Source of the DNA: an uncultured Alphaproteobacteria bacterium | GTDB lineage: Bacteria > Pseudomonadota > Alphaproteobacteria > MPNO01 > DASWLB01 | Assembly (NCBI GenBank): GCA_963817535.1 | Contig: CAWFOW010000011.1 | Location: 46,754-110,753 of the forward strand | Length of the DNA: 64,000 nt | Direction of reading: 5' to 3' | Shown here: piece by piece, positions 1,714 to 18,783 of the stretch | Numbering within the stretch: position 1 is the stretch's first letter | Layout: each line of letters starts with the position of its first letter | Translations under genes and position numbers: made by a program | The notes under the pieces: model-generated | What the model saw: only the letters and a program-made list of their open reading frames with translations | Told to the model about the DNA's origin: nothing | The model's database searches: none

Positions 1714-2250
1714 ATGCCCTCGATATGCGCTTGCGGGAATTCGGGGATGGAGGCAGCGACGCGTCCGCTCGACGCTGAGACCAAAGCGGTCGAGCGACCG
1801 GGCGATCACAAGGACGAGCTGCGGCTGTGGCTTCGGCTGTTCAGCTGCACGACCATGATCGAGCGCGAGATCCGCCGCCGCCTGCGCGAGACGTTCCATA
1901 CCACCCTGCCACGCTTCGACCTGATGGCGCAGCTCGACAAGATGCCCGACGGCATGAAGCTGGGCGAACTCTCGCAGCGCCTGATGGTGTCGAACGGCAA
2001 CATCACCGGGCTGGTCGACCGGCTGGTCAGCCAGGGGCTGCTCGACTGCCAGCCGGCGCCGAACGACCGGCGCACCCAGATCGTACGGCTGACCGCCTCT
2101 GGCCGTCGCCAGTTCCGCACCATGGCCACCGCGCACGAAGGCTGGATCGCCGAGATCTTCTCGGGGCTTGATTCGGACGACATCGCGAGATTGATGAAGC
2201 TGACAGCGCAGGCGAAGCAGTCGGCCTACCGGGCGACGCAGCTGCGATGA
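1714..2250 (+). CDS. MarR family transcriptional regulator
   Basis: wHTH MarR signature (GELSQRLMVSNGNITGLVDRLVSQGLL...DRRTQIVRLTASGRRQF). Stop overlaps the next start (ATGA). The true start may be the internal Met at ~1747, because a palindrome sits just upstream of 1714. Confidence 0.8.
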   Translation: MPSICACGNSGMEAATRPLDAETKAVERPGDHKDELRLWLRLFSCTTMIEREIRRRLRETFHTTLPRFDLMAQLDKMPDGMKLGELSQRLMVSNGNITGLVDRLVSQGLLDCQPAPNDRRTQIVRLTASGRRQFRTMATAHEGWIAEIFSGLDSDDIARLMKLTAQAKQSAYRATQLR

Positions 2251-3890
2251 CGGAGCGGTCGGCCCACCTCAACTCGTTCGCGCGCGACAATCTGCCGCCG
2301 CGCGACCAGTGGCCCGACTTGATCTTTACCCTTTCCGAGCTGACCTACCCCGAGCGGATGAATGCGGCGACGGCGTTCCTCGATGCGCGCATCGCGGCCG
2401 GCGACGGCGACAGGATCTGCCTCATCTCTCCCGCCGAGCGCTGGACCTACGCCGAACTCGCCGACCGGGTGAACCGCATCGCCAATGTGCTGACCCGCGA
2501 GCTGGGCATGGTCCCGGGAAACCGCGTGCTGTTGCGCGCCGCCAACGAACCGATGCTGGTGGCGGCCTACTTTGCGGTGCTGAAGGCGGGCGGCATCGTG
2601 GTGCCGACCATGCCGCTGTTGCGCGCGAAGGAGCTGTCCTACCCCATCGGCAAGGCGGAGATCCGCTTAGCCCTGTGCGACGTGCGGCTGTTGGACGAGC
2701 TCGCGAAGGCCGCGCCGGACGGGCGCACGCGTATCGTTACCTGGGGCGACGGCCGGGATGGCGGCCTGGAATCCCTGATGGCCAAGCCCGGCTACGACAC
2801 GTTCGCCGCCTGCGACACGGCGGCCGACGACGTGTGCCTGATCGCCTTCACCTCGGGTACCACCGGGGTGCCCAAGGGCACCATGCATTTCCACCGCGAC
2901 CTGCTGGCGATCTGCGACACCTATGCGCGGCACGTGCTGCGCGCGTCGCCATCCGACCGTTTCATCGGCTCACCACCGCTCGCCTTTACGTACGGGCTCG
3001 GCGGTCTGGTGCTGTTCCCGATGCGTATCGGGGCGAGTTCGGTGCTGTTGGAGAAGGCGCCGCCCGAGACGCTGATGGAGGCGATCGAGACCTGGGGCGC
3101 GACCGTCTGCTTCACCGCGCCCACCGCCTACCGTGCGATGCTGGCGTTGGGCGACAAGTTCGACATCTCGTCCCTGCGCAAATGCGTTTCGGCCGGCGAA
3201 ACCTTGCCCAAGGCGACGTTCGAGGCGTGGCGCGAGGCGACCGGAATCGCGATCCAGGACGGCCTCGGCTCGACCGAGATGCTGCACATGTTCATCTGCT
3301 GTCGCGAAGACGAGATGCGCGGCGGCGCCACCGGCAAGGCGATCCCCGGCTTTGAGGCGCGCGTGATCGATGCGGACGGCAAGGAGGTGCCGCCCGGAAC
3401 CGTCGGCCGGCTGGCCGTGCGCGGCCCGACCGGCTGCCGCTATTTGGCCGACGAGCGCCAGCGCGACTATGTGATCGACGGGTGGAACGTGACCGGCGAC
3501 ACCTATTTGATGGAGCCGGACGGGTACTTCGTGTACCAGGCGCGATCCGACGACATGATCGTCTCGGCCGGCTACAATATTGCGGGTCCGGAGGTGGAAG
3601 CCGCGCTCCTCGAGCACCCGGCGGTCGCCGAGTGCGGCGTGGTGGGCGCGCCCGACCCGGATCGCGGCCAGATCGTGAAGGCCTATGTCGTGCTGCGTGA
3701 GGGACATGTGAGCGACGCTGCACTGGTGCGCGCGCTGCAGGATCACGTCAAGGCGAATATCGCCCCCTACAAGTATCCGCGCGCCATCGATTTCGTGCCT
3801 CGCCTGCCGCGCACGGAAAGCGGTAAGTTGCAGCGGTTCGAGCTGCGCCGTCGGGCGGCGCAGCCGCCGGACGCAACTCAGGCTTGGTAG
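2247..3890 (+). CDS. AMP-dependent aryl/acyl-CoA ligase (benzoate-CoA ligase-like)
   Basis: 547 aa. AMP-binding motifs TSGTTGVPKG, YGSTE-like, GDTY...; the adenylate-forming Lys is near the C-terminus (SGKLQR). Confidence 0.85.
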   Translation: MTERSAHLNSFARDNLPPRDQWPDLIFTLSELTYPERMNAATAFLDARIAAGDGDRICLISPAERWTYAELADRVNRIANVLTRELGMVPGNRVLLRAANEPMLVAAYFAVLKAGGIVVPTMPLLRAKELSYPIGKAEIRLALCDVRLLDELAKAAPDGRTRIVTWGDGRDGGLESLMAKPGYDTFAACDTAADDVCLIAFTSGTTGVPKGTMHFHRDLLAICDTYARHVLRASPSDRFIGSPPLAFTYGLGGLVLFPMRIGASSVLLEKAPPETLMEAIETWGATVCFTAPTAYRAMLALGDKFDISSLRKCVSAGETLPKATFEAWREATGIAIQDGLGSTEMLHMFICCREDEMRGGATGKAIPGFEARVIDADGKEVPPGTVGRLAVRGPTGCRYLADERQRDYVIDGWNVTGDTYLMEPDGYFVYQARSDDMIVSAGYNIAGPEVEAALLEHPAVAECGVVGAPDPDRGQIVKAYVVLREGHVSDAALVRALQDHVKANIAPYKYPRAIDFVPRLPRTESGKLQRFELRRRAAQPPDATQAW

Positions 3891-4357
3891 AGGCGCGCGT
3901 GTCAGCACGTTCTCCGCTTAAAGACTCCGCTGTCCGGTCGCCCGGTTCGCACGAAGTGCTGCTGCCCGCCGGCTGGCCGCGCCCGCGGGGCTACGCCAAC
4001 GGCATCCGCGCGAAAGGCGAGTTCGTCTTCGTCGGCGGAATGGTGGGGTGGGACGCGGCCGGAAATTTCGCCGAAGGCTTCGTCGCCCAGGCACGCCAGG
4101 CGCTGCAGAACGTCCGCGCGGTACTGGCCGAGGGCGGTGCACGGCCCGAGGACGTGGTGCGCCTGACCTGGTACGTGATCGACCTCGACGAATACCGCGC
4201 GAGCCTCGCCGCCCTGGGCGCCGCCTATCGCGAGCTGATGGGCAGCCACTACCCGGCGATGGCATTGGTCCAGGTGGCTGGGCTGGTCGAGCCACGCGCG
4301 CGGCTCGAGATCGAGGCGACGGCGGTGATTCCGGACCGCGCGGAGCGGGCGCGATGA
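3884..4357 (+). CDS. ridA: RidA/YjgF family reactive-intermediate deaminase
   Basis: YjgF/chorismate-mutase-like fold signature (GFVAQARQALQNVRAVLAEGGARPEDVVRLTWYV...IEATAV). Overlaps neighbours at both ends. Confidence 0.75.
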   Translation: MVEARVSARSPLKDSAVRSPGSHEVLLPAGWPRPRGYANGIRAKGEFVFVGGMVGWDAAGNFAEGFVAQARQALQNVRAVLAEGGARPEDVVRLTWYVIDLDEYRASLAALGAAYRELMGSHYPAMALVQVAGLVEPRARLEIEATAVIPDRAERAR

Positions 4358-5169
4358 GCGCTGGTGGCGCGATAGCGACCGCGGCGGCGCCGCCGCCGGT
4401 GATCGTGCTGGACAACGTGTCGGTCGAGTTGTCTGGCGAACGCATCTACAATTCCATCGGATTTGCGGTCCGGCCCGGAGAGTTCCTGTGCATCCTGGGC
4501 CCCTCCGGGTGCGGCAAGTCCACCTGCCTGCGCCTGATGGGAGATCTCTTGCAGGCGAACGGCGGGACCGTGCGCGTCGACGGGCGGACCCCCGCCGAAG
4601 CGTGGGACCAGCTCGCCTACGTGTTCCAGGCGCCGCGCCTTGTGCCGTGGCGCACCGCGCTCGGCAATGTGATGCTGGCGATGGAGCTGCGCTTTGGGCG
4701 GGGTGCCAGGCGCGACATGGAGTCGAAGGGCCGCGCGCTGCTGGACCTTGTCGGGCTCGCCAACGATATCGAGAAATATCCCCGGATGCTTTCGGGCGGC
4801 GAGCGCCAGCGCGTCGCCATCGCCCGTGCCCTGGCGGTCGAGCCGAAGATCGTGCTTATGGACGAGCCGTTTTCGGCGCTGGATCTTAACACGCGCCGCC
4901 GGCTACGCGCCCAGATGATCTCGATCTGGGAGGAGACGGGGAAGACCATCGTCTTTGTCACCCATGACATCGACGAAGCGCTGGTCCTGGCCGACCGGAT
5001 CCTGTTGATGTCGAACAAGCCGACGCGCGTGATCGAGACCATCGAGATTGACCGGCCGCGACCGCGCGACCTGGACGGAACGCCCGAGCTTCGCGCTCAT
5101 CGCGACCATCTGCACCGTTTGTTCCGTCAGCTCGAGCCGGGATCCGAGGAAGAAACCCAACCGGGGTGA
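4354..5169 (+). CDS. ABC transporter ATP-binding protein, NitT/TauT (nitrate/sulfonate/bicarbonate) family
   Basis: Walker A GPSGCGKST, signature LSGGERQRVAIARAL, Walker B IVLMDEPFSALD. Start ATG shares ATGA with the RidA stop. Confidence 0.85.
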   Translation: MSAGGAIATAAAPPPVIVLDNVSVELSGERIYNSIGFAVRPGEFLCILGPSGCGKSTCLRLMGDLLQANGGTVRVDGRTPAEAWDQLAYVFQAPRLVPWRTALGNVMLAMELRFGRGARRDMESKGRALLDLVGLANDIEKYPRMLSGGERQRVAIARALAVEPKIVLMDEPFSALDLNTRRRLRAQMISIWEETGKTIVFVTHDIDEALVLADRILLMSNKPTRVIETIEIDRPRPRDLDGTPELRAHRDHLHRLFRQLEPGSEEETQPG

Positions 5170-5198
5170 GTGGACCCCGAAATACGGAGGCAGACGCA

Positions 5199-6185
5199 AT
5201 GAAGCGAACGATTGTCGGCGCGCTCGGCGCGCTTGCGGTGGCCCTGGTCGCCGCCGGCCCGGCCCTCGCAAAGGAAAGGATCAGCTATGCCTACCTGATC
5301 GATCCCGCCCTGGAGGGCATCTTGTACGGCATCAAGTCAGGCAAGGTGCATTCCGACACGGTCGAACTGGTGGCCACACCGCTGCCGATACCCGCGCTGA
5401 TCCAGTCGACAACGACCAAGCAGTACGACGTGATCATGAACGCCGTGCTGTCGATTCCGCGCGCCCTGGAGAAGGGGCTGAGGATGGAAGTGCTGTCGAC
5501 GGCCCTGCGCTCGGTGCCGAGCGCGGTGAGCGGCGCGGCCTGGGTCAAGAAGGACGGGCCCTACAAGACGCTGGCGGACCTGAAAGGCAAGACGATCGGT
5601 GACACATCGCTGCAATCGACCGGCACCATGTGGACGCGCATTGCCATGTGGAAGAAGCACGGCATTAACGTGATGTACGATAATGGCGACTTCAAATGGG
5701 TGCAGCTTCCGGCCTCGGGCCTTCTTGGCGCGGTGCAGACCGGGCGCATCGACGCAGCGAATCTGATCCACCTTCAGGCGTATGAGGCGCTGAAGTCGGG
5801 CAACTACGTCTCGCTCCTGCACACCGCTCAGGACCTCCACGAAATGTTCGGCGTGCGGCAGGTCTCGGCGGTCAATGTCGGTTATCCCGAGAAGCTCAAC
5901 GCGCGGCCCGATGCGTTCAAGGAGTTCGACCGCATGATCAAGGCCACGGTCGATTATGCCAGTGCCCACACGGCCGAAGTCGGCGAGGCGATTGCGAAGG
6001 AGTTCAAGATCTCGCCCGAGTTCTTCGGCTGGTGGCTTAAGAACTATTCGACGTTTCCCGGTGTGGTAAGCGATGGCGATCTGAAGGCCATGGAAGTGGT
6101 TTGGCAGAACGCGCACGATCTGCACGCGATGGGGACGTTCCCGAAGGCCGAGTCGGTCGTCTGGAAGTACGCGATCCGCGAGTAG
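5199..6185 (+). CDS. ABC transporter substrate-binding protein, NMT1/THI5-like (NitT/TauT family)
   Basis: Signal peptide MKRTIVGALGALAVALVAAGPALA and an SsuA/NMT1-like fold. RBS ggagg upstream. Confidence 0.8.
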   Translation: MKRTIVGALGALAVALVAAGPALAKERISYAYLIDPALEGILYGIKSGKVHSDTVELVATPLPIPALIQSTTTKQYDVIMNAVLSIPRALEKGLRMEVLSTALRSVPSAVSGAAWVKKDGPYKTLADLKGKTIGDTSLQSTGTMWTRIAMWKKHGINVMYDNGDFKWVQLPASGLLGAVQTGRIDAANLIHLQAYEALKSGNYVSLLHTAQDLHEMFGVRQVSAVNVGYPEKLNARPDAFKEFDRMIKATVDYASAHTAEVGEAIAKEFKISPEFFGWWLKNYSTFPGVVSDGDLKAMEVVWQNAHDLHAMGTFPKAESVVWKYAIRE

Positions 6186-6194
6186 ACTGGCCCC

Positions 6195-6992
6195 GTGGCG
6201 CGCGCGCTCGAAAACACCCGGAGCAGGTGGACCGCGGGCCGGCGTTCCCGGTTGGCGGCCCACCTGTTCACGCTCGCCGCGCTCGCGGTGTGGCAGCTTT
6301 ATTCGATGACGGTAGAGCCGTTCGTGATGCCCGGCCCGTGGCCGGTGGCGGAACGGCTCTACCAGTTCCTTACGACGTGGAGCCTCGCCAAGCACACGTT
6401 CTACTCGTTCGGGCATATATTTGCGGCAATGGCGATTTCGTTCCTGGTGGGGAGCGGGCTCGCGTTCCTTGCCCATTATGCTCCGGCCTTCCGTCTTGCC
6501 GTGCATGGGCGGCTGAGCCCGTTCCTGAACTCGTTCTCCGGGATCGGCTGGACGCTGCTCGCCATCGTCTGGTTCGGGGTGAACGACCTGACGGTCATTT
6601 TCGCGATCAGCGTGGTGCTGACGCCCTTCGCCATCATCAACATGCGTGAGGGGCTCGAGACGCTGGATTCCGAGCTGTTGGAGATGTCGGCGAGCTTCAC
6701 CCGCCGGCGTGGCCGGGAGTTCACGCGCATCGTGCTTCCGGCTCTGATGCCCTTCATTTTCGCGACGGCGCGGATCAGCTTCGGCGTGTCGTGGAAGGTG
6801 ACGCTGGCTGCCGAGCTGTTCGGCGGGCGCACCGGGCTTGGCTACCTGTTCAACCTGGCGCGTCAGGATTTCGACATGGCGCTGATCCTGGTTGTGATCG
6901 TGGTCATCATCGCCTTCGTCTACGGCACCGACAGGCTGGTCTTCGCACCGCTCCAGGCTCGGCTCGGCCGCCACCACGAGGCGGAACCGTGA
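6195..6992 (+). CDS. ABC transporter permease (NitT/TauT family)
   Basis: Multi-TM protein with the EAA-like loop typical of BPD permeases. GTG start. Confidence 0.8.
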   Translation: MARALENTRSRWTAGRRSRLAAHLFTLAALAVWQLYSMTVEPFVMPGPWPVAERLYQFLTTWSLAKHTFYSFGHIFAAMAISFLVGSGLAFLAHYAPAFRLAVHGRLSPFLNSFSGIGWTLLAIVWFGVNDLTVIFAISVVLTPFAIINMREGLETLDSELLEMSASFTRRRGREFTRIVLPALMPFIFATARISFGVSWKVTLAAELFGGRTGLGYLFNLARQDFDMALILVVIVVIIAFVYGTDRLVFAPLQARLGRHHEAEP

Positions 6993-7774
6993 CCGCCATC
7001 GCCAGCTCCACGCCGCGCCCGCCCCGGCGCAGGCCGTTCACCCAGCGCGCCATCGCGGATGGGCTGGTGATCGCCGTGCTCGTCGGCTGGTGGCTGGCCG
7101 CGCGCCATCTGCCGGAATTCATCCTTCCTGGTCCGGTGAGTATCGCGAAGACCCTGGCGGCGCTGTTCGTCACCCCGTCGCTCCTGGTCGACACGGCCAC
7201 AAGCGCTTTGCGGGTGATCGTGGCGGTGGTCGTGTCCGTCGCACTGGGTGGCGTGCTCGCAATTCTGCCCTATCGTTGGCCGGTGCTCGACGGCATCGTG
7301 CACGACCGCATCAAGCCGTTCCTCAACTCGTTCCCATCGGTGGGCTGGGCGATCCTCGCGATGGTGTGGTTCGGCACGTCATCCATCTCGGTGATTATCG
7401 TCGAGGTGATGATCCTGACGCCGTTCTGCCTGGTGAACGTGTCGGAAGGCATTCGCGAGCTCGACGATGAGCTGCTCGAAATGGGAGAAAGCTTCACCCG
7501 CAGCCGGCCGCGCGTGATGCTCAAGATCGTGGTGCCGCTTTTGTTGCCCTATGCGGTTTCGGCGGTGCGCATCGCCTACGGCGTGGCGTGGAAGATCGCG
7601 CTGGTTGCCGAGCTGTTCGGAGCGACCAGCGGCCTGGGCTATGTGATGCTCAAGGCGGAGATCGTGTCGGACGCCGCGACGGTTTACGCCACCTGCTTCG
7701 CCATCGTGATCCTGTTCCTTGCCGGCGAGAAGCTGGTGATCGATCCCCTGTCGCGCGTGGTGGCCTACAAATGA
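6989..7774 (+). CDS. ABC transporter permease (NitT/TauT family), second subunit
   Basis: Paralog of the preceding permease (shared ...FLNSF...GW..LA.VWFG... pattern). GTG start overlaps the upstream stop (GTGA). Confidence 0.8.
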   Translation: MTAIASSTPRPPRRRPFTQRAIADGLVIAVLVGWWLAARHLPEFILPGPVSIAKTLAALFVTPSLLVDTATSALRVIVAVVVSVALGGVLAILPYRWPVLDGIVHDRIKPFLNSFPSVGWAILAMVWFGTSSISVIIVEVMILTPFCLVNVSEGIRELDDELLEMGESFTRSRPRVMLKIVVPLLLPYAVSAVRIAYGVAWKIALVAELFGATSGLGYVMLKAEIVSDAATVYATCFAIVILFLAGEKLVIDPLSRVVAYK

Positions 7775-7796
7775 ACAGCTACCCCGAAGGAGAGAC

Positions 7797-9425
7797 GTGA
7801 TGATCACCGCGGATTTGCTGCTGAAGAACGGCAACGTGATGACGATTGATGCGATGTCAACGCGGACCGACGCTGTCGCCATCGCGAACGGGCGCATCGT
7901 CGCGCTCGGCAAGGAGGCACAGGAGCTGGCCGGACCCAACACCCAGATCATCGATCTGGGCGGCCGCACGGCCGTTCCCGGGCTGTTCGACAGCCATATC
8001 CACACGATGATGGGCGGGCAGAACGAGCTCGCGGTTTCGCTCGAGGATGCGAAATCCGTCGCCGACGTGCAGAAGGCCTTCGCAGCCCGCGCGCAAGGCG
8101 CTGCGCCCGGGAACTGGATCCTGGGAGGCAGCGGCTGGCACGAAAGCCAGCTCGCCGAGGGGCGCATGCCGCACCGGAAAGAGCTCGACGCAGTAACGCC
8201 GAATAACCCCGTCTTCCTGCGCAGGGGCGGTCACGTCGCGGTCGCGAACAGCGCGGCCCTGAAAATTGCGGGTATCACGAAGGATACGCCCGACCCGCAT
8301 GACGGTGTGATCGGGCGCGATGCAGGCACCAACGAGCCGAACGGCATGCTGGTCGAGCGCGCGGCCTTCACCCAAGTGCTGAAGCACGTGCCGCGCCCGA
8401 CCCGTGGCGACCTGGTCGAGGGGTTGAAGAGATACACCGCGCGCCTCAATAGTCGCGGCATCACGGCGACGTTGGAGCCCGGCATCAGCCTGGACGAGAT
8501 CGCCGCCTACATGGAGCTGTGGCGCCAGGGGAAGATGACCACGCGGGCGCGTATCCTCCAGCGCATCGCATGTGCGGACGATGTGTCGGGCCTCACCCAG
8601 GTGCTGGCACCCGAGTTCGGCGACGACTGGCTGCGCATCGGCGGCTTCAAGTTCATGGCCGACGGCGGCGTGGAAGCGGCCTTTCTGCGCGAGCCCTATC
8701 GCGTGATCGAGGGCGAGCAGAACGACCCCGATTTCGTGGGGAAGATGGTGCTGCCGCCTGGCGGTCTCGACGAGCTGCGCGAGATGCTGATGGTTGCGGC
8801 CGCACAGGGTTGGCAGGTGCAGATCCACATGGTGGGCGACGCTACGATCGACACCATCGTCGGGCTGGTCGAGGAGGTGGCAAGGAAATATCCGGTCGGC
8901 GATATGCGCTGGACCATGATGCACGTCTTCCTGCCGACCGACGAAGCATTGACCAAGATGAAGCGGCTCGGCCTCCGCGCGACGGTGCAGGACCATCCCG
9001 TTAAGCTTGGTCACAACATGCTGCGCTACTGGGGCGAGGAGCGGGCGTCGCGCTCGATCCCGGTGCGGTCGATCCTCGCGGCGGGCATTCCCACCGGCGG
9101 CGGCACCGATGCCCCCGTTGTCGACTGGAATCCGTTCGAATCAATCTGGTGGATGACCACGCGCAAGGTCTTCGCCCAGGGCGGGGTGCGGGTACTCGGC
9201 CCCGACGAGGCAATCGGCCGCGAGGAGGCGCTGCGCCTCTACACGCTGGGCAGCGCCGAGACCTGCTTCATGGAGAGCATCGTGGGTACGATCGAGCCCG
9301 GCAAGCTCGCCGACATTGCGGTGCTCGATGCCGACCCGATGACGGTCGCCGACGATGCGCTGCGCGACATCAAAGCGGCGCTGACCGTCGTCGGCGGCCG
9401 GATCGTTCATCGCGCGGGGGTCTGA
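7797..9425 (+). CDS. Amidohydrolase family protein (Amidohydrolase_3, metal-dependent hydrolase)
   Basis: 542 aa. N-terminal ...IDLGGRTAVPGLFDSHIHTMMGG metal-binding HxH motif and C-terminal GGTDAPV... typical of the Amidohydro_3 family. RBS aaggagag. Confidence 0.8.
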   Translation: MMITADLLLKNGNVMTIDAMSTRTDAVAIANGRIVALGKEAQELAGPNTQIIDLGGRTAVPGLFDSHIHTMMGGQNELAVSLEDAKSVADVQKAFAARAQGAAPGNWILGGSGWHESQLAEGRMPHRKELDAVTPNNPVFLRRGGHVAVANSAALKIAGITKDTPDPHDGVIGRDAGTNEPNGMLVERAAFTQVLKHVPRPTRGDLVEGLKRYTARLNSRGITATLEPGISLDEIAAYMELWRQGKMTTRARILQRIACADDVSGLTQVLAPEFGDDWLRIGGFKFMADGGVEAAFLREPYRVIEGEQNDPDFVGKMVLPPGGLDELREMLMVAAAQGWQVQIHMVGDATIDTIVGLVEEVARKYPVGDMRWTMMHVFLPTDEALTKMKRLGLRATVQDHPVKLGHNMLRYWGEERASRSIPVRSILAAGIPTGGGTDAPVVDWNPFESIWWMTTRKVFAQGGVRVLGPDEAIGREEALRLYTLGSAETCFMESIVGTIEPGKLADIAVLDADPMTVADDALRDIKAALTVVGGRIVHRAGV

Positions 9426-9426
9426 C

Positions 9427-9897
9427 GTGGCGGGGCAGGGGGCCATCCTGTCGGCGCACGGTCGCAACCATGGCGACCTGGTGGCGGCGCGCGACATTGC
9501 ACGCCTGCCGGCGGCGACCGACAACTACCCGCTGCTGACATTCCGCGAAATCTACGCCACCGTCGGAGTCATCGGACTTCGCATCGGCGAGGAGGCGCGG
9601 GCGCTCGACGGCCGGCCCGTGCGGGTGCGCGGGTACATGGCGCCGCCGGTCGCTGACCGCGACAGCTTCTTCATGCTGACGCGGACCCCGTTCGTTACCT
9701 GTCCGTTCTGCGACCCGGCGGCGAGCTGGCCCGATGACGTGGTACTGGCCTGCCTGGAAAAGGACAGTGCCTTCGTCGATCCGACCCTCGCGGTCGAGCT
9801 GGTCGGCGAGCTCGATATCGGTCCGAAGCGCGACCCTCGGACGGGTACGACGCGCTACGTGCGTCTCGTCGATGCGCGCTGGCAGCTGGTGTCTTGA
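9427..9897 (+). CDS. Hypothetical protein, 156 aa, co-transcribed with the amidohydrolase
   Basis: GTG start 2 nt after the amidohydrolase stop. Contains a CPFCD motif. No family recognised. Confidence 0.4.
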   Translation: MAGQGAILSAHGRNHGDLVAARDIARLPAATDNYPLLTFREIYATVGVIGLRIGEEARALDGRPVRVRGYMAPPVADRDSFFMLTRTPFVTCPFCDPAASWPDDVVLACLEKDSAFVDPTLAVELVGELDIGPKRDPRTGTTRYVRLVDARWQLVS

Positions 9898-9966: not shown

Positions 9967-10854
9967 ATGACAAATTCTCAAAATCATTTTTATGTCGATT
10001 CGGAAACTGGATCACTCAGCGACGTGTTGCTGTGTGCTCCAGAATATTATGAATGGGTGCCGCACAACGCGGTCACGAGGCGGTCGATGCAGTCCCTCGG
10101 CAGCTTCGACATGCAGGCCGCGCGGGCTCAATTCGCCGAGTTCGAGCAGGCCTTCGCCGAGGCGGGCGTGAACCGTCATTATCTGATGCCGGACGCCTGC
10201 CTTCCCGATCAGCTCTACACGCGCGATACGAGCCTCGTCACGCCGTGGGGTCCGGTCGTGCTGCAGCCGATGCAGCCCCGCCGCCGCGGCGAGGTCGGGC
10301 CGGTGGTCGATTTCTTTGACCGGGCGGGGGTGGCGCGATGGCGCTGGGCGACCGCGGGCTCGGTCGAAGGCGGCGATATCCATATGATCCGGCCCGGCCT
10401 TCTGGTGATCGGCTATTCGGGCGAACGGACCACGATCGAGGGCGCCCAGCAGGTCGGAGGCTGGTTCCGAGACGCCGGGTGGAAGGTCCGCTACGAGAGC
10501 TTTCCCGAGCATTTTCTCCATTTCGACCTGCTCTTTGCCATGGTTGGCGAGGCGTTGGCGGTCGCCTGCATCGAGGCGCTGTCCGAAGACTATCTTGCCT
10601 GGCTCAAACAGAAGAAAATCGACGTCATTCCCGTGTCCTATGGCGAGGCCATGCGCCTCGGCTGCAACCCCCTTTCGCTCGGCGACAGGCGAGTGATCTC
10701 GTCGGCCACGTGCCGCGAGCTGAATCAGCGGCTTCGGGCTGCCGGAATCCGGGTCTACGACCCCGACATCTCGGTGTTCACCGGGGGCGGCGGAGGGCCC
10801 CGCTGCATGTCGATGGCCCTGCGCCGCGAGCCGCTGGCCCGCCCAAGCAATTAG
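9967..10854 (+). CDS. Amidinotransferase-superfamily hydrolase (dimethylarginine dimethylaminohydrolase / arginine deiminase-like)
   Basis: 295 aa. C-terminal catalytic-Cys motif DISVFTGGGGGPRCMSMAL matches the DDAH/ADI GGxxCMS signature. The first ~100 nt are markedly AT-rich. Confidence 0.7.
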   Translation: MTNSQNHFYVDSETGSLSDVLLCAPEYYEWVPHNAVTRRSMQSLGSFDMQAARAQFAEFEQAFAEAGVNRHYLMPDACLPDQLYTRDTSLVTPWGPVVLQPMQPRRRGEVGPVVDFFDRAGVARWRWATAGSVEGGDIHMIRPGLLVIGYSGERTTIEGAQQVGGWFRDAGWKVRYESFPEHFLHFDLLFAMVGEALAVACIEALSEDYLAWLKQKKIDVIPVSYGEAMRLGCNPLSLGDRRVISSATCRELNQRLRAAGIRVYDPDISVFTGGGGGPRCMSMALRREPLARPSN

Positions 10855-10931: not shown

Positions 10932-11978
10932 ATGATCGTCAAGACGTCGGATGTCGAACAATATCGACCTGACGAGAGGCTGAGGCGCGTGAGTAAGATT
11001 CGAATCGACCAATATGTGTCGGGGCCGTCGCCCGATGCGACGATAAGTGTCGCGTCGCCACATGTGCTTGCCGAGGCCGCGGCGATGTGGAAGTTCGCCC
11101 GCCGGGCCGGTTTCGCCGCGGAGCTCAAGGCGCTGCAGCGGCCGCGCGTCGCGCGGTCGGTGACGGCGGCGGTGCTCGACTGGGAGCTGATCGGGCTGGC
11201 GGCGGCTTCCGTCGTCTGGTTGGGCTGGTGGGCGGTGCCGGTCGCGCTGCTGGTCATCGGCAACCGCCAGCGCGCCCTCGGCAACCTGCTGCACGACGCC
11301 TCGCACTGGACGATGGATGGCAACCGGTCCCGGGCGACGGTGCTCGCCAACCTCCTGTTCTGCTGGCCGCTGACCGTGTCGATGGCGGTCTACCGGGCGG
11401 ATCACACCCGGCATCACAAATGCCTCGGCGATCCGGCCGACGACCCCGACTTCATTCACGATCCCGACCGCCTCGCGCGCGGCTGGGTGCGTGTCTGGTT
11501 CGACCAGGTCGGCTCGTGGCGGGGCCTGCGCTCGTCCGTGCTCGGCAATCTCGACCGGATGGAGGGCGCGATGCTGGCCGGCGTGGCCGCATGGTGGTGC
11601 GTCGTTCTCGGTGCGGCGGCCGCCGCGGCGGGACCCTCGGCGGCCTTGGTCTTCCTCGGCCTCTGGGTCGCGGCGCGGGCGACCGTGTTCCATGCGGTCA
11701 CCTGCTTTCGCGAAATCTCCGACCATGTCGGGCTGGTGCCCGGTACGCTGATCGGGTTCAGCCGGAACCATCCGTTCGGCGGGGTGCTGGGCCAACTCGT
11801 GCATCCGCACAACAACGGGTACCACCTGCTGCATCACCTGGACCCCGGCATCCCGTTTCACGCCCTTCCCCGGGCCCACCGGCTGCTGCTGCAATGGCCG
11901 GACTACGCAACGGCCGAACACTGCACGTCCTATTTCGGGGGCGAGGGGAGCGCGGTCCGCTCCTGGGTGTGCCGTTAG
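10932..11978 (+). CDS. Fatty acid desaturase family membrane protein (three His-box di-iron enzyme)
   Basis: His boxes HDASH, HTRHH, HNNGYHLLHH plus hydrophobic TM segments. Confidence 0.75.
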   Translation: MIVKTSDVEQYRPDERLRRVSKIRIDQYVSGPSPDATISVASPHVLAEAAAMWKFARRAGFAAELKALQRPRVARSVTAAVLDWELIGLAAASVVWLGWWAVPVALLVIGNRQRALGNLLHDASHWTMDGNRSRATVLANLLFCWPLTVSMAVYRADHTRHHKCLGDPADDPDFIHDPDRLARGWVRVWFDQVGSWRGLRSSVLGNLDRMEGAMLAGVAAWWCVVLGAAAAAAGPSAALVFLGLWVAARATVFHAVTCFREISDHVGLVPGTLIGFSRNHPFGGVLGQLVHPHNNGYHLLHHLDPGIPFHALPRAHRLLLQWPDYATAEHCTSYFGGEGSAVRSWVCR

Positions 11979-11996
11979 CCGTGGCGTCCGCCGTCG

Positions 11997-12257
11997 TCAC
12001 CGGCGCGCCGCGCGCCAGTCCTCGACCATGGCGGCGAGGGAGGCAAGGGTGTCGAAGCGCTGCGGATCGAACTCGATCTCGGTGAAGTCGACGCCGAACG
12101 CGGTCTCGAGGAATGTGACCAGCTTTATTACCGCCAGCAAGTCGAGGCGGCCGGTCGAGATCAGGGAGGTGGCGTCGGCGAACGGCGCCGAGTCGTTCTG
12201 ATCGCGCAGGAGCTCGGTAAGGTAGGTCCTGATCCTTACCCGATCGTCCTCAGCCAT
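11997..12257 (-). CDS. DltC-like aminoacyl/acyl carrier protein homolog with Leu in place of the phosphopantetheinyl-Ser
   Basis: 86 aa. Four-helix carrier pattern ...ADATSLISTGRLDLLAVIKLVTFLETAFGVDFTEIEF. Start overlaps the MBOAT 3' end by ~22 nt. Confidence 0.6.
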   Translation of the reverse strand: MAEDDRVRIRTYLTELLRDQNDSAPFADATSLISTGRLDLLAVIKLVTFLETAFGVDFTEIEFDPQRFDTLASLAAMVEDWRAARR

Positions 12258-13762
12258 TGATCCATCCCCAGGACATTGAGCAAGAATTCGAGGTGCCAGC
12301 CGAGCGGCGCGTGCGGGAACGGCCCGTCCAGAAACGATAGCAGGCAGAAGAACGTCAACACACCCACCGACGGCAACATCTGGCGCCGCCACCACGGAGC
12401 GTGCGGATCCGCCCGCCGCGGCATGAGCTGGGAGAGGACGATCCCGCCCGCGAGCAGCAGGCAATAGAATGCATAGGTCTGCGACTGGAGCAGACTTTGC
12501 CACATGCCCTGGCTCGCCAGGTCGGGGAGCCTGCGGAATATCTGATGGGACAGGTAGTTGCCGACGCCCGCCGCCATGAACGTGGCGAAGGCCAGCCGCA
12601 GCCGCGGGTGCCGTTTGAAGCAGCGGAGGAACGCCGGGTAGAAGTAGATATGAACCAGCGCTTCCTTGAAATAGTAGTCGTACCGGTTCCAGAACTCGGC
12701 GATGCTGCGTGATGACAATGGTCGGTAAGTATTGCGCAATAGTCTAAATCCCGCCAAACGCGCGAGGGCGACGGCCTTGTGGCCCCAGATCGCGAGGACC
12801 AGCAATCGCTCCGGGAAATTGAGCAGAATTCCCCAGAGCCCGGCCGGACCCGGTCCCTTGCCGGTATCGAGGAAGTGCACGAACGTCTGCGACAGCGGCG
12901 CGATGCCGGCCAGGCCGTAGAAGACGTGGCGCATCAGCCACAGGACGACCGTCAGGACGAACGCCCAGCACAAAAGCTTGAGGCCGGAGAGCTGGGTGGC
13001 CGCCAGTTCCTCGGCCGAGCCGGCCTCGACGCTCCGCCACGACGCGGCACCGCGACCGACCGGCTCGATCACCCAGGGGGCGAAGAAGGGGTGGAAGGCG
13101 GCAAAATGGCGGATCGTCGGCTGGGGCTGGCGGCGCTGCTGATCGAGCAGCGCGTAGCAGAGGAACCAGATGAAGGCCGCCAGCACGGCGGTCAGGCTCC
13201 ACAGCGCCACCTCCGGCAGGCCATGCAGCAGGTTGGCGCAGGCGGCCGCGATCATGGCGAAGCAGGCCAGGTGGACGGCGAGGATCGGCCGCCGCCCGAC
13301 CGGATGGTCGCGCCACTGCCGGGCGAGCCAGAGCACCGCGAGCGCGAGGGGCGCTGCGGCCAGCAGGCTGCCGGCGCGCACCCAGCGTGCCTCGAACATG
13401 CTCTGCAGACCCTGCTGCGCGAGGACCATGGCCTCGAGGCCCGGCGAGAACCAATCCATGTGGATCAGCAGCATGCCGGCACCGCCAACTGCCGCGATCA
13501 AGAAGCGGTGACGGCCGGCCACCCCCGCGACGGACGCGATCAGGGAGACGGTCAGGGCCAGCCTCAGCGAATAGCTGCCCATTAGGTTCAGCAGCACCGC
13601 GAAGGCCAGGAACAGGACCAGCTTGCCGGGGATCGTCTGTGCAAAGGCGACCAGCGCGTCGTCGGTCTCGATCGGCGGCATCCGCCATTTCCAGGGCGGC
13701 TTGCCGAGCCCGGCCTGACGCGCCAGAAGGCCGACGCGGCCGATGAGGGGCGTGGGCGGCAT
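12236..13762 (-). CDS. MBOAT family membrane O-acyltransferase (DltB/AlgI-like)
   Basis: 508 aa, multi-TM. MBOAT signature RSIAEFWNRYDYYFKEALVHIYFYP with the conserved His. Start ATG overlaps the upstream stop (TGATG). Confidence 0.8.
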   Translation of the reverse strand: MPPTPLIGRVGLLARQAGLGKPPWKWRMPPIETDDALVAFAQTIPGKLVLFLAFAVLLNLMGSYSLRLALTVSLIASVAGVAGRHRFLIAAVGGAGMLLIHMDWFSPGLEAMVLAQQGLQSMFEARWVRAGSLLAAAPLALAVLWLARQWRDHPVGRRPILAVHLACFAMIAAACANLLHGLPEVALWSLTAVLAAFIWFLCYALLDQQRRQPQPTIRHFAAFHPFFAPWVIEPVGRGAASWRSVEAGSAEELAATQLSGLKLLCWAFVLTVVLWLMRHVFYGLAGIAPLSQTFVHFLDTGKGPGPAGLWGILLNFPERLLVLAIWGHKAVALARLAGFRLLRNTYRPLSSRSIAEFWNRYDYYFKEALVHIYFYPAFLRCFKRHPRLRLAFATFMAAGVGNYLSHQIFRRLPDLASQGMWQSLLQSQTYAFYCLLLAGGIVLSQLMPRRADPHAPWWRRQMLPSVGVLTFFCLLSFLDGPFPHAPLGWHLEFLLNVLGMDQWLRTIG

Positions 13763-15342
13763 CAGGTGCCTCCGCCGGCCTCGAGCCAATCGAGCAGGGC
13801 GCGCCGGTCAAGCTTGCCGCTGGTCGTCAGCGGCATCGCCGCCAGGATATGAATGGCTGCGGGAACCATGTGCGGCGGAACGCGGCTCCTCAGGGCGTCC
13901 CGCAGCGCCGGTGCAGGGCCGGCCTCGCCGCCGACAAAGCCGACAATGCCCTGGGCGACGCCGTCCGCCACCGGCCACGCGACCGCGGCCACATCTTCGA
14001 CACCGGCCACCACGCGCAGATGCGCCTCGATATCCTCGAGCTCGACCCGGTGCCCGTGGATCTTGATTTGATGGTCAAGCCGGCCGAGGTGGTGAAAACG
14101 ACCGGTTTCGTCCCTCAGCGCAAGGTCGCCGGTCAGGTACCACCGGCGCCCGTCCAGTATGGGGAAACGCTCCGCGGTCAGGTCCGGCGCGCCGAGATAG
14201 CCGATGGCGAGCTGCGCGCCGGCGATGGCGAGCTCGCCAGCCACGTTGTTCGCGACGGGCCGCCGGTCCGGCCCCAGAACCGCCAGCGCGCTGCCGGGGT
14301 GCGGCGTGCCGATCGCCACCACGTCGCGGCCGGGCGTGAGGGCCGGCGTGGCGCCCGGCGCGATCCGCTCGCCGCAGCAATCGACCGTGGCCTCGGTCGG
14401 GCCGTAGAAATTGTCGATCGCGCTGTTGGGCGCGGCCGCCTGCCAGGCGCGCACCGAGGCGAGGGGCAGCGGCTCGCCGCCAAAGGAGGAGTAGCGCAGG
14501 CTGGGTAAGGAACCCGGCGCCAGGGAGCGCGTCTGCCGCATCCAGGTGATCGCGGCCGGGGCCGAGCCCCATACGGTCAGGCGGCGGTCGCGAATGAACC
14601 GGGCGGGCGACACCTGGCTGACCGCCGGAACCACGTGGAGCGACGCGCCGGCCTGCCACGGCAAGAAGATTTCGCCCAGGGACGGATCGAACGACAGCTC
14701 GGTGAATTGGGAGGCGCGGTCCTGCTCGGTCAGCTCTTTGCGGGCCTGCAGCGCGGACAGGTACGCGGCAACCGCGCCGGCGGACACCATGACGCCCTTG
14801 GGCGTGCCGGTGGTTCCCGAGGTGAAGATGACATAGAGCATGTGATCATCGGCCATGTCGGCGGGCGGCTCGAGAGGCTGCGGCTCCGGCAGCGCATCCA
14901 GCGCCAGCACAGAAAGCCCGAGACGATCCGTCCGCAACGCGGCGGCGGCGGAGCCATCGGGCACGAAAGCCAGATGCAGCCGGTCGAGGGTCGTGGGTGT
15001 CAGGCGGCGCACGCCATTGCCGTCGGCGATCACGGCGTCGATTCCGGCGAGGTCGAGCACCGTCTCGATGCGTGCCGCTGGCCAACGCAGCCCGAGGGGC
15101 ACGTAGGTCGCGCCGGCCCAGGCGGCGGCCAGCACCGCCTCCATCGCGACCAGGCTGCGCGAGGCGAGGATGCCGATCCGGCGTCCGGCGCCGTAGCTGC
15201 GGTCGTGCAGCGCAGCAGCCAGACGGCCGCCGCGCCGGGCGAGCTCGCCATAGGACAGGGTGACGCCATCGGCGTCGAGCGCCAGCCGCTCCGGCGCCAG
15301 CCGCGCGCGTTCATAGACTGGCCAGCACGGATTCGTCGTCAT
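13762..15342 (-). CDS. Stand-alone NRPS-type adenylation enzyme (DltA-like aminoacyl-AMP ligase)
   Basis: 526 aa. A-domain cores FTSGTTGTPKGV (A3), FDPSLGEIF (A4), NFYGPTEATV (A5), YLTGDLA (A7), GRLDHQIKIHGHRVELEDIE (A8), PLTTSGKLDRRAL (A10). Confidence 0.85.
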   Translation of the reverse strand: MTTNPCWPVYERARLAPERLALDADGVTLSYGELARRGGRLAAALHDRSYGAGRRIGILASRSLVAMEAVLAAAWAGATYVPLGLRWPAARIETVLDLAGIDAVIADGNGVRRLTPTTLDRLHLAFVPDGSAAAALRTDRLGLSVLALDALPEPQPLEPPADMADDHMLYVIFTSGTTGTPKGVMVSAGAVAAYLSALQARKELTEQDRASQFTELSFDPSLGEIFLPWQAGASLHVVPAVSQVSPARFIRDRRLTVWGSAPAAITWMRQTRSLAPGSLPSLRYSSFGGEPLPLASVRAWQAAAPNSAIDNFYGPTEATVDCCGERIAPGATPALTPGRDVVAIGTPHPGSALAVLGPDRRPVANNVAGELAIAGAQLAIGYLGAPDLTAERFPILDGRRWYLTGDLALRDETGRFHHLGRLDHQIKIHGHRVELEDIEAHLRVVAGVEDVAAVAWPVADGVAQGIVGFVGGEAGPAPALRDALRSRVPPHMVPAAIHILAAMPLTTSGKLDRRALLDWLEAGGGT

Positions 15343-15696: not shown

Positions 15697-15808
15697 AAGC
15701 GGGCCGGCGCGATTCCGCGCGAGCGGAAGATGCACTAGGTCATTTACCCATAAATGGGATTCCCATTTTTTGGGAAGGGTGATTCAGTCTCCTCGAAGGG
15801 AGACCGAG

Positions 15809-16578
15809 ATGGCACGTTTCGATCTGACGGATTTCGAGTGGTCTGTGATCCAGCCACTGCTGCCGAACAAGCCGCGCGGTGTGCCGCGTGTTGACGACCG
15901 CCGGGTGTTGAACGGGATTTTCTGGCGGCTTCGCACCGGCGCGCCGTGGGCCGACATTCCCGAGCGTTACGGTCCGCACACGACCTGCGTGAACCGCTTC
16001 AACCGCTGGCGCAGGGCGGGGGTGTGGGATCGGCTTCTCGAGGCGGTTTCCAAGGCTTACGAGGGCGACATCCAGATGATCAACTCCTCGATCATCCGCG
16101 TGCATCAGCACGCCGCCAACGCCCAAAAAAAGACGACCGATCCCGTTGCATGGGTCGCTCGCGCGGCGGGCTGACGACCAAGATCCATGCGCTGGTCGAT
16201 GCGAACGGCCTGCCGATCGTCCTCAAGCTGACCGAAGGCCAGGCCCATGACGGGCGCAGTGCCGAAGACATGTTCGGCTCTCTTGAAGCCGGCGACATCC
16301 TGCTCGCCGACCGGGCCTACGACAGCGACGCGCTCCGGCGAACCCTCGCCATGCGCGGCGCGTGGGGCAACATCAAGCCCATGCCCGGCCGCACCAACAT
16401 CCCAGCCTTCAGCCCGTTTCTTTACCGCTACCGCAACCTCGTCGAGCGCTTCTTCAACAAGCTCAAGCACTTTCGAGCCGTCGCCACCCGCTACGACAAA
16501 AGACCCGAAAACTACCTCGCATCCGTCAAGCTGGCCGCAGCCCGAATATGGATGCGATTTAATGAGTCGATGACCTAG
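15809..16578 (+). CDS. IS5/IS427-group transposase OrfAB (OrfA 15809-16174; OrfB frame continues to 16578 after programmed -1 frameshift)
   Basis: OrfA begins MARFDLTDFEWSVIQPLLP (DUF4096-type N-terminus). OrfB carries the DDE domain ...RGGLTTKIHALVDANGLPI...LLADRAYDSD... Confidence 0.8.
16126..16132 (+). other. Programmed -1 ribosomal frameshift slippery heptamer A_AAA_AAG
   Basis: In the OrfA frame the codons are CAA AAA AAG. OrfB is in the -1 frame relative to OrfA. Confidence 0.7.
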
Positions 16579-16711
16579 TGAAGCGTGCCCGGGTTGCGAT
16601 GAAGGGGGCAAGTCAGCGTCGCAGTCGTCAACGGCGTCGTCATGGGCAGCCACACCTGCATTGCCCAATGATACCGCGGGACCGTGCTGAGAATGGCGTC
16701 GACCGCGTGGG

Positions 16712-17745: not shown

Positions 17746-18783
17746 TCAGCCCCGCAAATATCCGCGATCGCGATAGAAGCGCTCGGCGCCCGGATGCAGC
17801 GGTGCACCGCGCGGAGTCTCCGGATCGGGCGTGCAGAGCTGCACCATGTCCAGTGGCCGGAAATTGTCAGTCGGGATGACAAGCTTGCGCGCCTCGATCG
17901 CCTCGCACAGCGCGTAGGCGACGTCGTCCTCCATGTCGGCGTGGACAATCATCGGCCAGCCAGAGAAGTCGACGGCCGTGACCGGCGCGCTGAGGGCGGG
18001 GATGCGCTCTTTCGTCAGATTGATCATGTCGAATCCTTCTGCGGAAAGGCGCGCGTTCACCGCCCCCTCGACCGGCAGGATGCGGAAGCCGTGTTCGAGC
18101 GCGAACTGTCCCCAGCTCAGCAGGCCCTCGTCGAACACGGCGTCGATTTCGCCCTTGCGGATCATTTCGGCGCGATGCGGATGGCTGGGGCGCGAGACGG
18201 AGTGGACCGTACCGCCCCAGGCACGGATGTCGTCGAACGAGAATCCCGACGCCGACATCAGGGCGTTGACCGACAGCATGGTCGGGTCCTCGTCGAACGG
18301 CGGCGCAATTGGGGTGCCGGTCGAGATGCGCAGCGGCGGGCGCCGCTCCCGAATTTGCTCGAGCGAGGTGATGCCGGTCAATTCGTGGACGGCGATGACC
18401 ACGGCGTCCCAGGACGGGAACACCGCGATCGCGCGCAAGGGGAGGGGGCTCTCGAAAGGCGCACATCCCTTGTAGGCGAGGGCGAGCGGCGCGTTGGGGT
18501 TGATCCAGAGCAGCGAGAGGTCTTTTCGTGCGACCCTCAGCAGGTTGTCACGCGAGCCTCCGATCCCGAACGACAGGCCCAGCCCGACGTCAGACGGCGA
18601 ATCGCGTCGGGACTCGATCCGCATCGACAGGTTCGTGCCGAGGCGGGAATCGATCTGGGGGACGTTCGTGCCGCTGCGGGTGGAGCGGCGGGAGAGCGAC
18701 GTGTCGTAGAGCGCCGCCGCCAGCTCGAGAAGACCTTTCGAACGCTGGATGCCCGAGTTGTAACGGGTCGGTATCTCGACCAT
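17746..18783 (-). CDS. TAXI-family-like SBP-fold protein without signal peptide (paralog of 23654-24625)
   Basis: C-terminal ...VDFSGWPMIVHAD...APLHPGAERFYRDRGY resembles the TAXI HPGA..Y signature. N-terminus MVEIP... has no hydrophobic leader. Confidence 0.55.
   Translation of the reverse strand: MVEIPTRYNSGIQRSKGLLELAAALYDTSLSRRSTRSGTNVPQIDSRLGTNLSMRIESRRDSPSDVGLGLSFGIGGSRDNLLRVARKDLSLLWINPNAPLALAYKGCAPFESPLPLRAIAVFPSWDAVVIAVHELTGITSLEQIRERRPPLRISTGTPIAPPFDEDPTMLSVNALMSASGFSFDDIRAWGGTVHSVSRPSHPHRAEMIRKGEIDAVFDEGLLSWGQFALEHGFRILPVEGAVNARLSAEGFDMINLTKERIPALSAPVTAVDFSGWPMIVHADMEDDVAYALCEAIEARKLVIPTDNFRPLDMVQLCTPDPETPRGAPLHPGAERFYRDRGYLRG

Follow-up and report, generated by a model that had tools for sequence, protein, structure and literature searches.

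We analysed a 64-kb stretch of contig CAWFOW010000011.1 (assembly GCA_963817535.1; the whole stretch is hereafter the window) which includes a gene for a DltC-like aminoacyl carrier protein. The gene belongs to a small module together with genes for an adenylation enzyme, a polytopic membrane protein and a convergently transcribed membrane di-iron enzyme. The subject of this report is codon 40 of the carrier, which reads leucine at the position of the serine that bears the phosphopantetheine cofactor. The features at this site are as follows.

11997–12257, minus strand: gene for the DltC-like aminoacyl carrier protein, 86 aa (ATG at 12257, stop codon at 11997–11999).
12138–12140, minus strand: carrier codon 40, TTG (Leu), at the phosphopantetheinyl-serine position as placed by the sequence, its relatives, a profile alignment and a structure model.
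12138–12143, minus strand: hexamer read as GACTTG and probably GACTCG in truth (plus strand CAAGTC for CGAGTC), a GANTC site.

The first 22 nt of the carrier gene are shared with the 3' end of the membrane-protein gene upstream of it, and the minus-strand frame of the carrier reads MAEDDRVRIR...ISTGRLD-L-LAVIKLVTFLE..., with T-T-G at 12140..12138 as an earlier note on this DNA had described. The hexamer straddles the codons for Asp39 and Ser40, and the affected G stands immediately before the A of GANTC. TTG makes up 8.4% of the leucine codons in the window, and TCG is its preferred serine codon (41.6%).

An exact-protein look-up of the window carrier returned no record, and its cluster at 90% identity holds one other sequence, P0010. 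Two contigs carry the gene for P0010, namely L012 (metagenome, 1.48 Mb) and L013 (Logan, 6.4 kb). Seventeen non-identical orthologues were available for comparison, eight of them database homologues and the other nine encoded at genomic loci of other species. The eight database homologues are 58–83% identical and could be aligned gap-free, each with G-R-[LI]-D-S at columns 36–40. Serine occupies column 40 in all 17 orthologues and in P0010, and apart from the window carrier and P0010 no homologue departs from D22, D39 or S40. The serine codon is TCG in eight of the nine genomic loci and TCC in the ninth. The orthologue alignment that the earlier note had proposed as a check therefore gives TCG at this position, and its remark that TTG lies one transition from TCG holds; judged from these sequences, the ancestral codon 40 is TCG, from which TTG is a single C-to-T transition away.

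A profile of the carrier family found DltC (1dv5) as its best solved relative, with GrlDSlavvklv aligned onto GLLDSMGTVQLL (E = 1e-7); in its fuller form the alignment places '...tGrlDSlavvklv...' on '...TGLLDSMGTVQLL...' of DltC 1dv5. The profile also matches PltL and other peptidyl carrier proteins (PCPs), with E-values ranging from 1e-7 to 1e-4. An AlphaFold2 model of the window carrier (predicted local distance difference test, pLDDT, 91.6; predicted template modelling score 0.82) has the small helical-bundle fold of ~80 residues, with helices at residues 3–19, 40–54 and 71–85, so that residue 40 is the first of helix II. The DltC profile, the helix and the orthologue column all place codon 40 where the earlier note had placed it, at the phosphopantetheinyl serine. 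General family models describe the carrier less well. The PF00550 score of the window protein is 18.4 bits, just under the cut-off of 20.8, with precomputed PF00550 matches present in five of the eight database homologues, and the NCBIfam DltC model NF003464 gives 19.1 bits for a cut-off of 68. The best NCBIfam name, 'ACP_for_OlsHI', refers to an ornithine-lipid pathway of the GH3 type from a planctomycete (PMC12493201), and we dropped it because of that different pathway and a score of 36.9 bits where the cut-off is 130.

The sub-threshold PF00550 score could be taken to favour a family of carriers that lack the serine and are loaded or used without phosphopantetheine, or that use S31 or S34 in its place. 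We reject this reading, since every one of the 17 orthologues keeps Ser40 in G-R-[LI]-D-S, as the 99.8%-identical relative L012 keeps its Ser40. The two serines of the sequence 'TSLIS', which the earlier note had put forward as alternatives at the helix-II N-cap, are not at the N-terminus of that helix because the model puts residues 20–39 in a loop. In addition, S34 is variable among the homologues, and S31, although invariant in ten aligned database sequences, is proline in the L004 orthologue.

The evidence that bears most directly on the TTG codon comes from the comparison of the window with L012, which is 99.79% identical to it over window positions 1998–22256 (20,261 bp). We listed all 43 differences between the two, 41 substitutions and two indels. 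GANTC sites, of which there are 49, make up 1.2% of the aligned columns, yet 11 of the 41 substitutions (27%) fall in them (odds ratio 31, p = 1.5e-12). All 11 break the motif, and ten are the same change, GANTCG to GANTTG or, on the other strand, CGANTC to CAANTC. Six of these ten are on the window side (GANTCG to GANTTG at 18380, 16082, 12139, 7261, 4450 and 2271) and four on the L012 side (CGANTC to CAANTC at 16568, 12194, 12143 and 2275); the remaining change on the L012 side is GATTC to GGTTC. A CpG is present at the affected position (CGANTC) in all observed cases. The apparent error rate is high, with roughly six of ~41 GANTCG/CGANTC hexamers affected in the window and four in L012. Two of the affected sites outside the carrier are:

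16082, plus strand: CAACTC, for CGACTC in L012 and in four outgroup copies of an IS5-family insertion sequence (IS); Arg to Gln in the transposase.
18380, minus strand: GAATTG, for GAATCG in L012; Ser to Leu in an NMT1_3-type binding protein, unpolarised by outgroups.

The GANTC-bound changes also differ from the others in their coding effect, ten being non-synonymous and one synonymous (91% non-synonymous), compared with seven and 20 for the other 27 coding substitutions (74% synonymous; p = 6e-4). Four of the five further window-specific GANTC changes (18380, 16082, 7261, 4450 and 2271) alter an amino acid, among them D to N in an ABC ATPase and D to N in a second AMP-binding enzyme. The ordinary single-nucleotide polymorphisms (SNPs) between the window and L012 thus look like genuine strain differences that have been filtered by selection, whereas the GANTC-bound ones look unfiltered. 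Wherever outgroups allowed polarisation, namely the 17 orthologues for the three carrier positions (12139, 12143 and 12194) and the four IS5 copies, from finished alphaproteobacterial plasmids, for 16082 and 16568, the derived allele was the motif-breaking one, and it lies in the window at 16082 and in L012 at 16568. No polarisation was obtained at 4450 (Asn/Asp33 of the ABC ATPase), a position that is variable among the homologues in the Protein Data Bank.

The carrier gene itself was altered on both sides. The window has D22, D39 and L40 and L012 has N22, N39 and S40, and all three differences are transitions in GACTCG. In the L012 gene (10001–10261, equivalent to window 11997–12257) the changes D22N and D39N lie at window 12194 and 12143, with GACTCG read as AACTCG, so that at 12138..12143 the window has GACTTG, L012 and L013 have AACTCG and the orthologues have GAC or GAT followed by TCG. 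The deposited P0010 protein of L012 is probably also wrong, through the same class of artefact. At two GANTC sites, 12139/12143 and 2271/2275, one side of the motif is changed in the window and the other side in L012, which would be expected with a sizeable fraction of miscalls in each assembly and would be very unlikely as independent mutations at 0.2% divergence.

These data bear on the possibility that the strain carries a genuine, recent C-to-T mutation, S40L, that leaves its carrier unable to accept phosphopantetheine and its Dlt-like module newly non-functional. The base is present in the deposited sequence and is one transition from the ancestral TCG, and the window and L012 do represent distinct strains, as shown by the 27 coding differences outside GANTC and their largely synonymous character. 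However, the change at 12139 falls in precisely the motif-bound, selection-blind class that also separates two assemblies of a single population (see below), and the sister assembly is altered in the same 5-bp motif. Together with the state of the rest of the module, which is described further on, this makes a true S40L mutation unlikely in our judgement.

In Alphaproteobacteria, GANTC is the site methylated by the cell-cycle N6-adenine methyltransferase CcrM (PMC12710330). The strong enrichment of differences in GANTC, and the alteration of both strains at one site, might accordingly be taken as signs of a methylation-linked mutational hotspot with G-to-A changes 5' of the methylated adenine, in which case the differences would be real; such a hotspot would hit the carrier motif because Asp-Ser encoded as GAY-TCG is itself a GANTC site. 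We consider a hotspot of this kind very improbable, and equally improbable its corollary that the Asp-Ser motif was damaged independently in two sister strains, by S40L in one and by D39N with D22N in the other. Real mutations would be exposed to selection, and the preponderance of non-synonymous changes at GANTC set against the largely synonymous remainder argues that these are not. The orientation of the changes also follows that of the contigs, since all ten are G to A on the plus strand of their own contig (binomial p = 0.002, a test that presumes that the window retains the orientation of its source record), and this bias counts for an artefact because biology cannot know how a contig is oriented. 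Moreover, we know of no mechanism that makes a G beside N6-methyladenine (m6A) hypermutable.

Further evidence came from L013, a Logan contig assembled from raw reads of the L012 population. It has every non-GANTC SNP of L012 down to window ~9710, and over ~5.9 kb it differs from L012 only by three extra GANTCG-to-GANTTG changes (15527, 11002 and 9997) and by two 1-bp indels, one in each. GANTC-bound changes therefore split two assemblies that agree at every other SNP, contrary to what a mutational hotspot would give, and the pattern indicates a miscall at the level of the reads that recurs when one population is assembled in another way. From ~5940 to 6401 of L013 (window ~9710–9247) its identity to both the window and L012 falls to ~75%, and here another strain or a paralogue has probably been joined on as a chimera of the de Bruijn graph.

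Errors of this form have been described in Nanopore sequencing. Lohde et al. reported for Oxford Nanopore Technologies (ONT) R10.4.1/Kit 14 data 'ambiguous' positions, almost always A/G or C/T, that are caused by methylation and whose minimal motif across 32 species is RA/TY, with the ambiguous purine directly 5' of A (PMC11610573). Assembly SNP errors associated with GANTC have been found in Nanopore data from agrobacteria, where methylation-aware models lower them (PMC12710330), and from Brucella (PMC12392509). Guppy 6.x and a single Medaka 1.8 round were used for large Nanopore-only sets of soil metagenome-assembled genomes (MAGs) (PMC12313526), and two of our comparison loci, L001 and L006, come explicitly from that project. 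From the error pattern and the contig naming we infer that the window and L012 are Nanopore-only data as well. GANTC is presumed to be methylated in the organism of the window. The difference at codon 40, GAC-T[C>T]-G or C[G>A]AGTC on the plus strand, is a transition in the RA/TY context at a methylation motif, and the discordance between near-identical assemblies recurs at that motif, as it does in the published errors; this agreement with the published artefact signature also speaks against the hotspot reading.

The likely course of events can be outlined. The true sequence would be GAC TCG (Asp39-Ser40), a GANTC site for a CcrM-type methyltransferase. On native, methylated DNA the base caller would tend to call the G 5' of the methylated A as A ('RA', or 'TY' on the opposite strand), plus-strand CGAGTC would become CAAGTC, the coding strand would then read GAC TTG, and polishing would leave the wrong base in place. 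We therefore hold it to be very likely that the TTG of codon 40 arose as a Nanopore consensus error through methylation of its GANTC site and is not a property of the organism; with the same likelihood the true codon is TCG, in the dipeptide GAC TCG (Asp-Ser). The earlier note had listed a sequencing or assembly error among its options, and this is the one that we favour, given that codon 40 is part of a GANTC(G) site and that its motif-breaking transition is repeated in ten other discrepancies between the assemblies. The D-S-[LM] serine expected at the N-terminus of helix II is missing from the window carrier as assembled (Leu40), which we attribute to base calling and not to the carrier protein. 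Sites of this kind are a predictable target because Asp-Ser encoded as GAY-TCN always contains GANTC, and with TCG it forms the error-prone hexamer GANTCG.

Several features of the window data are shared with the published Nanopore methylation errors, including the confusion of G with A (or C with T) directly 5' of the adenine of an m6A motif, the involvement of only some copies of the motif, the survival of polishing, the mostly coding location and the creation of false alleles. Unlike in the published cases, the apparent rate is high and a CpG accompanies every affected position. Other points weigh against our interpretation. Our case was built by comparing assemblies, not from reads or signal as in the published work, so that the base at 12139 was not seen directly in reads, and the Nanopore platform of the source assembly is deduced from the error pattern. 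Outgroup polarisation reached only two of the six window-specific GANTC changes. L012 and L013 probably share their source reads and are thus not independent witnesses of their own alleles. An in-frame codon test in the window (TTG after GAN codons) was not significant, the plus-strand asymmetry was not seen in strand-resolved counts over the whole window, and natural avoidance of GANTC could explain part of the excess of GANTTG over GANTCG described next.

The 64-kb window contains 143 GANTC sites, compared with 321 ± 20 expected from dinucleotide-preserving shuffles, a 2.2-fold under-representation. Such under-representation is typical where the motif is functional. The deficit is consistent with a CcrM-using genome, and only part of it is explicable by assembly error. 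The ratio GANTTG/(GANTTG+GANTCG) is 0.38 in the whole window compared with 0.21 in 15 other contexts (p = 6e-8), and the 72 GANTTG/CAANTC hexamers exceed by ~33 the number predicted from those contexts. Further miscalls are likely in the window past 22 kb, although we give the excess little weight as support because natural avoidance could yield part of it.

Attempts to extend the comparison gave negative results. Exact-protein look-ups of four window open reading frames (ORFs), aimed at carrying it past 20 kb, returned no record, and a search for the same species in short-read metagenomes of the Joint Genome Institute with two DNA patterns found none, the second pattern giving two chance matches in unrelated contigs. 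Among the differences outside GANTC, two synonymous transversions 3 bp apart at 8039–8042 (CTCGAGCG in the window against CTCCAGGG in L012) lie in a CTCGAG palindrome, and several other differences between the window and L012 are in or beside TCGA. TCGA may be a second methylated motif, or the association may be due to chance.

The earlier note had also raised the possibility of a freshly dead module, with an IS nearby, and an IS is indeed present upstream of the operon.

15733–16580, plus strand: IS5-family element; imperfect terminal inverted repeats of 22 nt; transposase encoded in two ORFs (programmed-frameshift type).

This copy would fit recent decay by its position, but it is intergenic, ~390 bp upstream of the adenylation gene, and interrupts no ORF of the module. 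It is not linked to the change at codon 40 because the same copy is present in L012, a relative with Ser40. The other genes of the module are full-length and show no damage. Between the window and L012 the adenylation gene has no differences and the product of the membrane-protein gene has a single one, at a variable position (H/Q180), and reversion of GANTTG/CAANTC across the four module genes restores the orthologue consensus at carrier codon 40 only. A dead module therefore finds no support here. We also entertained the idea that the two-ORF transposase of the window results from a 1-bp deletion error and rejected it, as the four outgroup copies show that the window state is native; in L012 an extra base (~6215, near window 16041) fuses the two ORFs and is probably an indel error. 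Homologous copies of the element occur in alphaproteobacterial plasmids, with the closest relatives in Hyphomicrobiales and Sphingomonadales. The GANTC deficit and these relatives are consistent with a CcrM-bearing alphaproteobacterium without proving it. Plasmid DNA matches to window 2000–9500 are mostly alphaproteobacterial by count, although the best-scoring ones are from Ralstonia, a betaproteobacterium. Scans of the window with Rfam and for tRNA genes gave no matches.

Beside the carrier, the module has three genes.

13762–15342, minus strand: stand-alone amino-acid adenylation enzyme of 526 aa, of the DltA or non-ribosomal peptide synthetase adenylation-domain (A-domain) type (PF00501, E = 2.7e-67).
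12236–13762, minus strand: polytopic membrane protein of 508 aa with a predicted DltB/MBOAT fold (AlphaFold2 and Foldseek).
10932–11978, plus strand: convergent membrane di-iron enzyme, FA_desaturase or GntB-like (PF00487, E = 1.2e-28).

The adenylation enzyme, whose stop codon overlaps the start of the membrane-protein gene by 1 nt, also scores above the cut-offs of TIGR01733 (329 bits) and PF13193, and it reaches 218.6 bits with the DltA subfamily model NF003417 (cut-off 476). Its nearest solved A-domains are module 2 of LgrA and AlmE (4oxi, E = 1.2e-69). Its unusual specificity code, DPGG-P-G-F-VCK, is DPGG[PS]GLVCK in seven orthologues, and small residues occupy positions 239 and 278 in the shared form DPGG.G[LF]VCK. 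The GrsA reference on which the code extraction depends was checked by reproducing DAWTIAAICK. As Asp235 and Lys517 are kept, the substrate would be an alpha-amino acid. An arginine-like substrate would be a guess prompted by neighbouring genes of the GntB-like and DDAH-like types.

No Pfam or NCBIfam model was found for the 508-aa membrane protein; Pfam MBOAT gave no match, the DltB model TIGR04091 matched weakly and locally (13.3 bits for a cut-off of 375), and at least 474 homologues in metagenomes are all labelled 'hypothetical'. Its AlphaFold2 model (pLDDT 82.9) has as top Foldseek matches DltB (6bug_C; E = 1.3e-4, probability 1.0, TM-scores 0.49/0.59) and 8jem, followed by the MBOATs PORCN, HHAT and DGAT1. 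Its invariant residues include H164, H406, H490 and the motif EFWN(R)Y..YFKE, which lies 48 residues ahead of G-N-x3-H406; EFWN.Y..YFKE and G-N-x3-H406 may correspond to the two histidine regions that are conserved in MBOATs. The best named relative of the di-iron enzyme is GntB, the guanitoxin arginine hydroxylase (NF041365, 127.6 bits, below the cut-off). In L012 an extra A at window 11001, beside GATTC/GAATC, shortens the call of this desaturase-like gene to 297 aa.

Across ten more distant loci the A-domain, the carrier and the convergent GntB-like enzyme form a constant core. The last is the most constant neighbour of the carrier, being found at ten of the 11 distant loci L001–L011 (all but the short L008) and in L012/L013. 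The membrane-protein gene lies between the A-domain and carrier genes in roughly half of the ten loci and is absent from this place in four of nine genomic loci. We saw no DltD or SGNH gene in the cassette or its flanks in the window and the comparison loci, and no phosphopantetheinyl transferase gene next to the cassette in the window, L001, L006 and L007. A DDAH/arginine-deiminase-superfamily gene (9967–10854, plus strand) and an Amidohydro_3 gene (7797–9425, plus strand) lie beside the cassette in the window and are probably outside the module because they are not conserved there in other genomes. The cassette (10932–15342 in the window) is compact and mobile-looking, and in L001–L011 it occurs in varied contexts in Beta- and Alphaproteobacteria, Acidobacteriota and other MAGs.

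The carrier resembles DltC in its size of ~80 aa, its helical bundle and a G-x-x-D-S-[LM] motif at the N-terminus of helix II, and as in the Dlt operon its gene adjoins that of a DltA-type adenylation enzyme and that of a membrane protein with a predicted DltB (MBOAT) fold. In contrast to DltC, it falls far below the DltC family cut-offs. The hosts also differ from those of the Gram-positive Dlt system, being mostly Proteobacteria, although one of the nine loci is from an Acidobacteriota MAG and one from a Streptomycetaceae MAG, and in place of a nearby DltD or SGNH partner there is the constant GntB-like di-iron neighbour. The partner A-domain has the code DPGGxGLVCK, which is conserved in the orthologues. 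A second likeness is to AlmEFG of Vibrio cholerae, which adds glycine to lipid A in a Gram-negative host with a stand-alone A-domain (AlmE) and a small carrier (AlmF). AlmG is an LpxL-type acyltransferase, whereas the transferase candidate of the cassette has the MBOAT/DltB fold, and the A-domain code is unlike what we take to be the glycine code.

If the error at codon 40 is accepted, the carrier has its normal serine and, by its gene content, the module is predicted to be an intact Dlt-like aminoacylation cassette. The adenylation enzyme would load an alpha-amino acid onto the holo-carrier, the DltB-fold MBOAT-like protein would probably move the amino acid across or into the membrane, and the GntB-like di-iron enzyme would probably modify the substrate or product. 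By analogy, then, the module is a putative Dlt/Alm-type aminoacyl-carrier cassette in its working and not a member of the canonical Dlt system. The cassette is uncharacterised and is widespread in environmental Proteobacteria.

Our results have consequences for the use of such sequences. The D-S-[LM] cofactor site of acyl carrier proteins, PCPs and DltC is inherently exposed to this artefact when CcrM-bearing bacteria are assembled from Nanopore data alone, and would then appear as D-L (GAY-TTG) or N-S (AAY-TCG), and both forms are present in two deposited assemblies of one species. GANTTG and CAANTC should therefore be masked in such MAGs when screening for 'inactive' carriers, for losses of active-site Ser or Asp, or for dN/dS (the ratio of non-synonymous to synonymous rates). 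In the window, codon 40 is unfit as a basis for proposing pseudogenisation, IS-linked decay or a cofactor-less carrier, and the carrier is to be read as having Ser40 and its module as intact.

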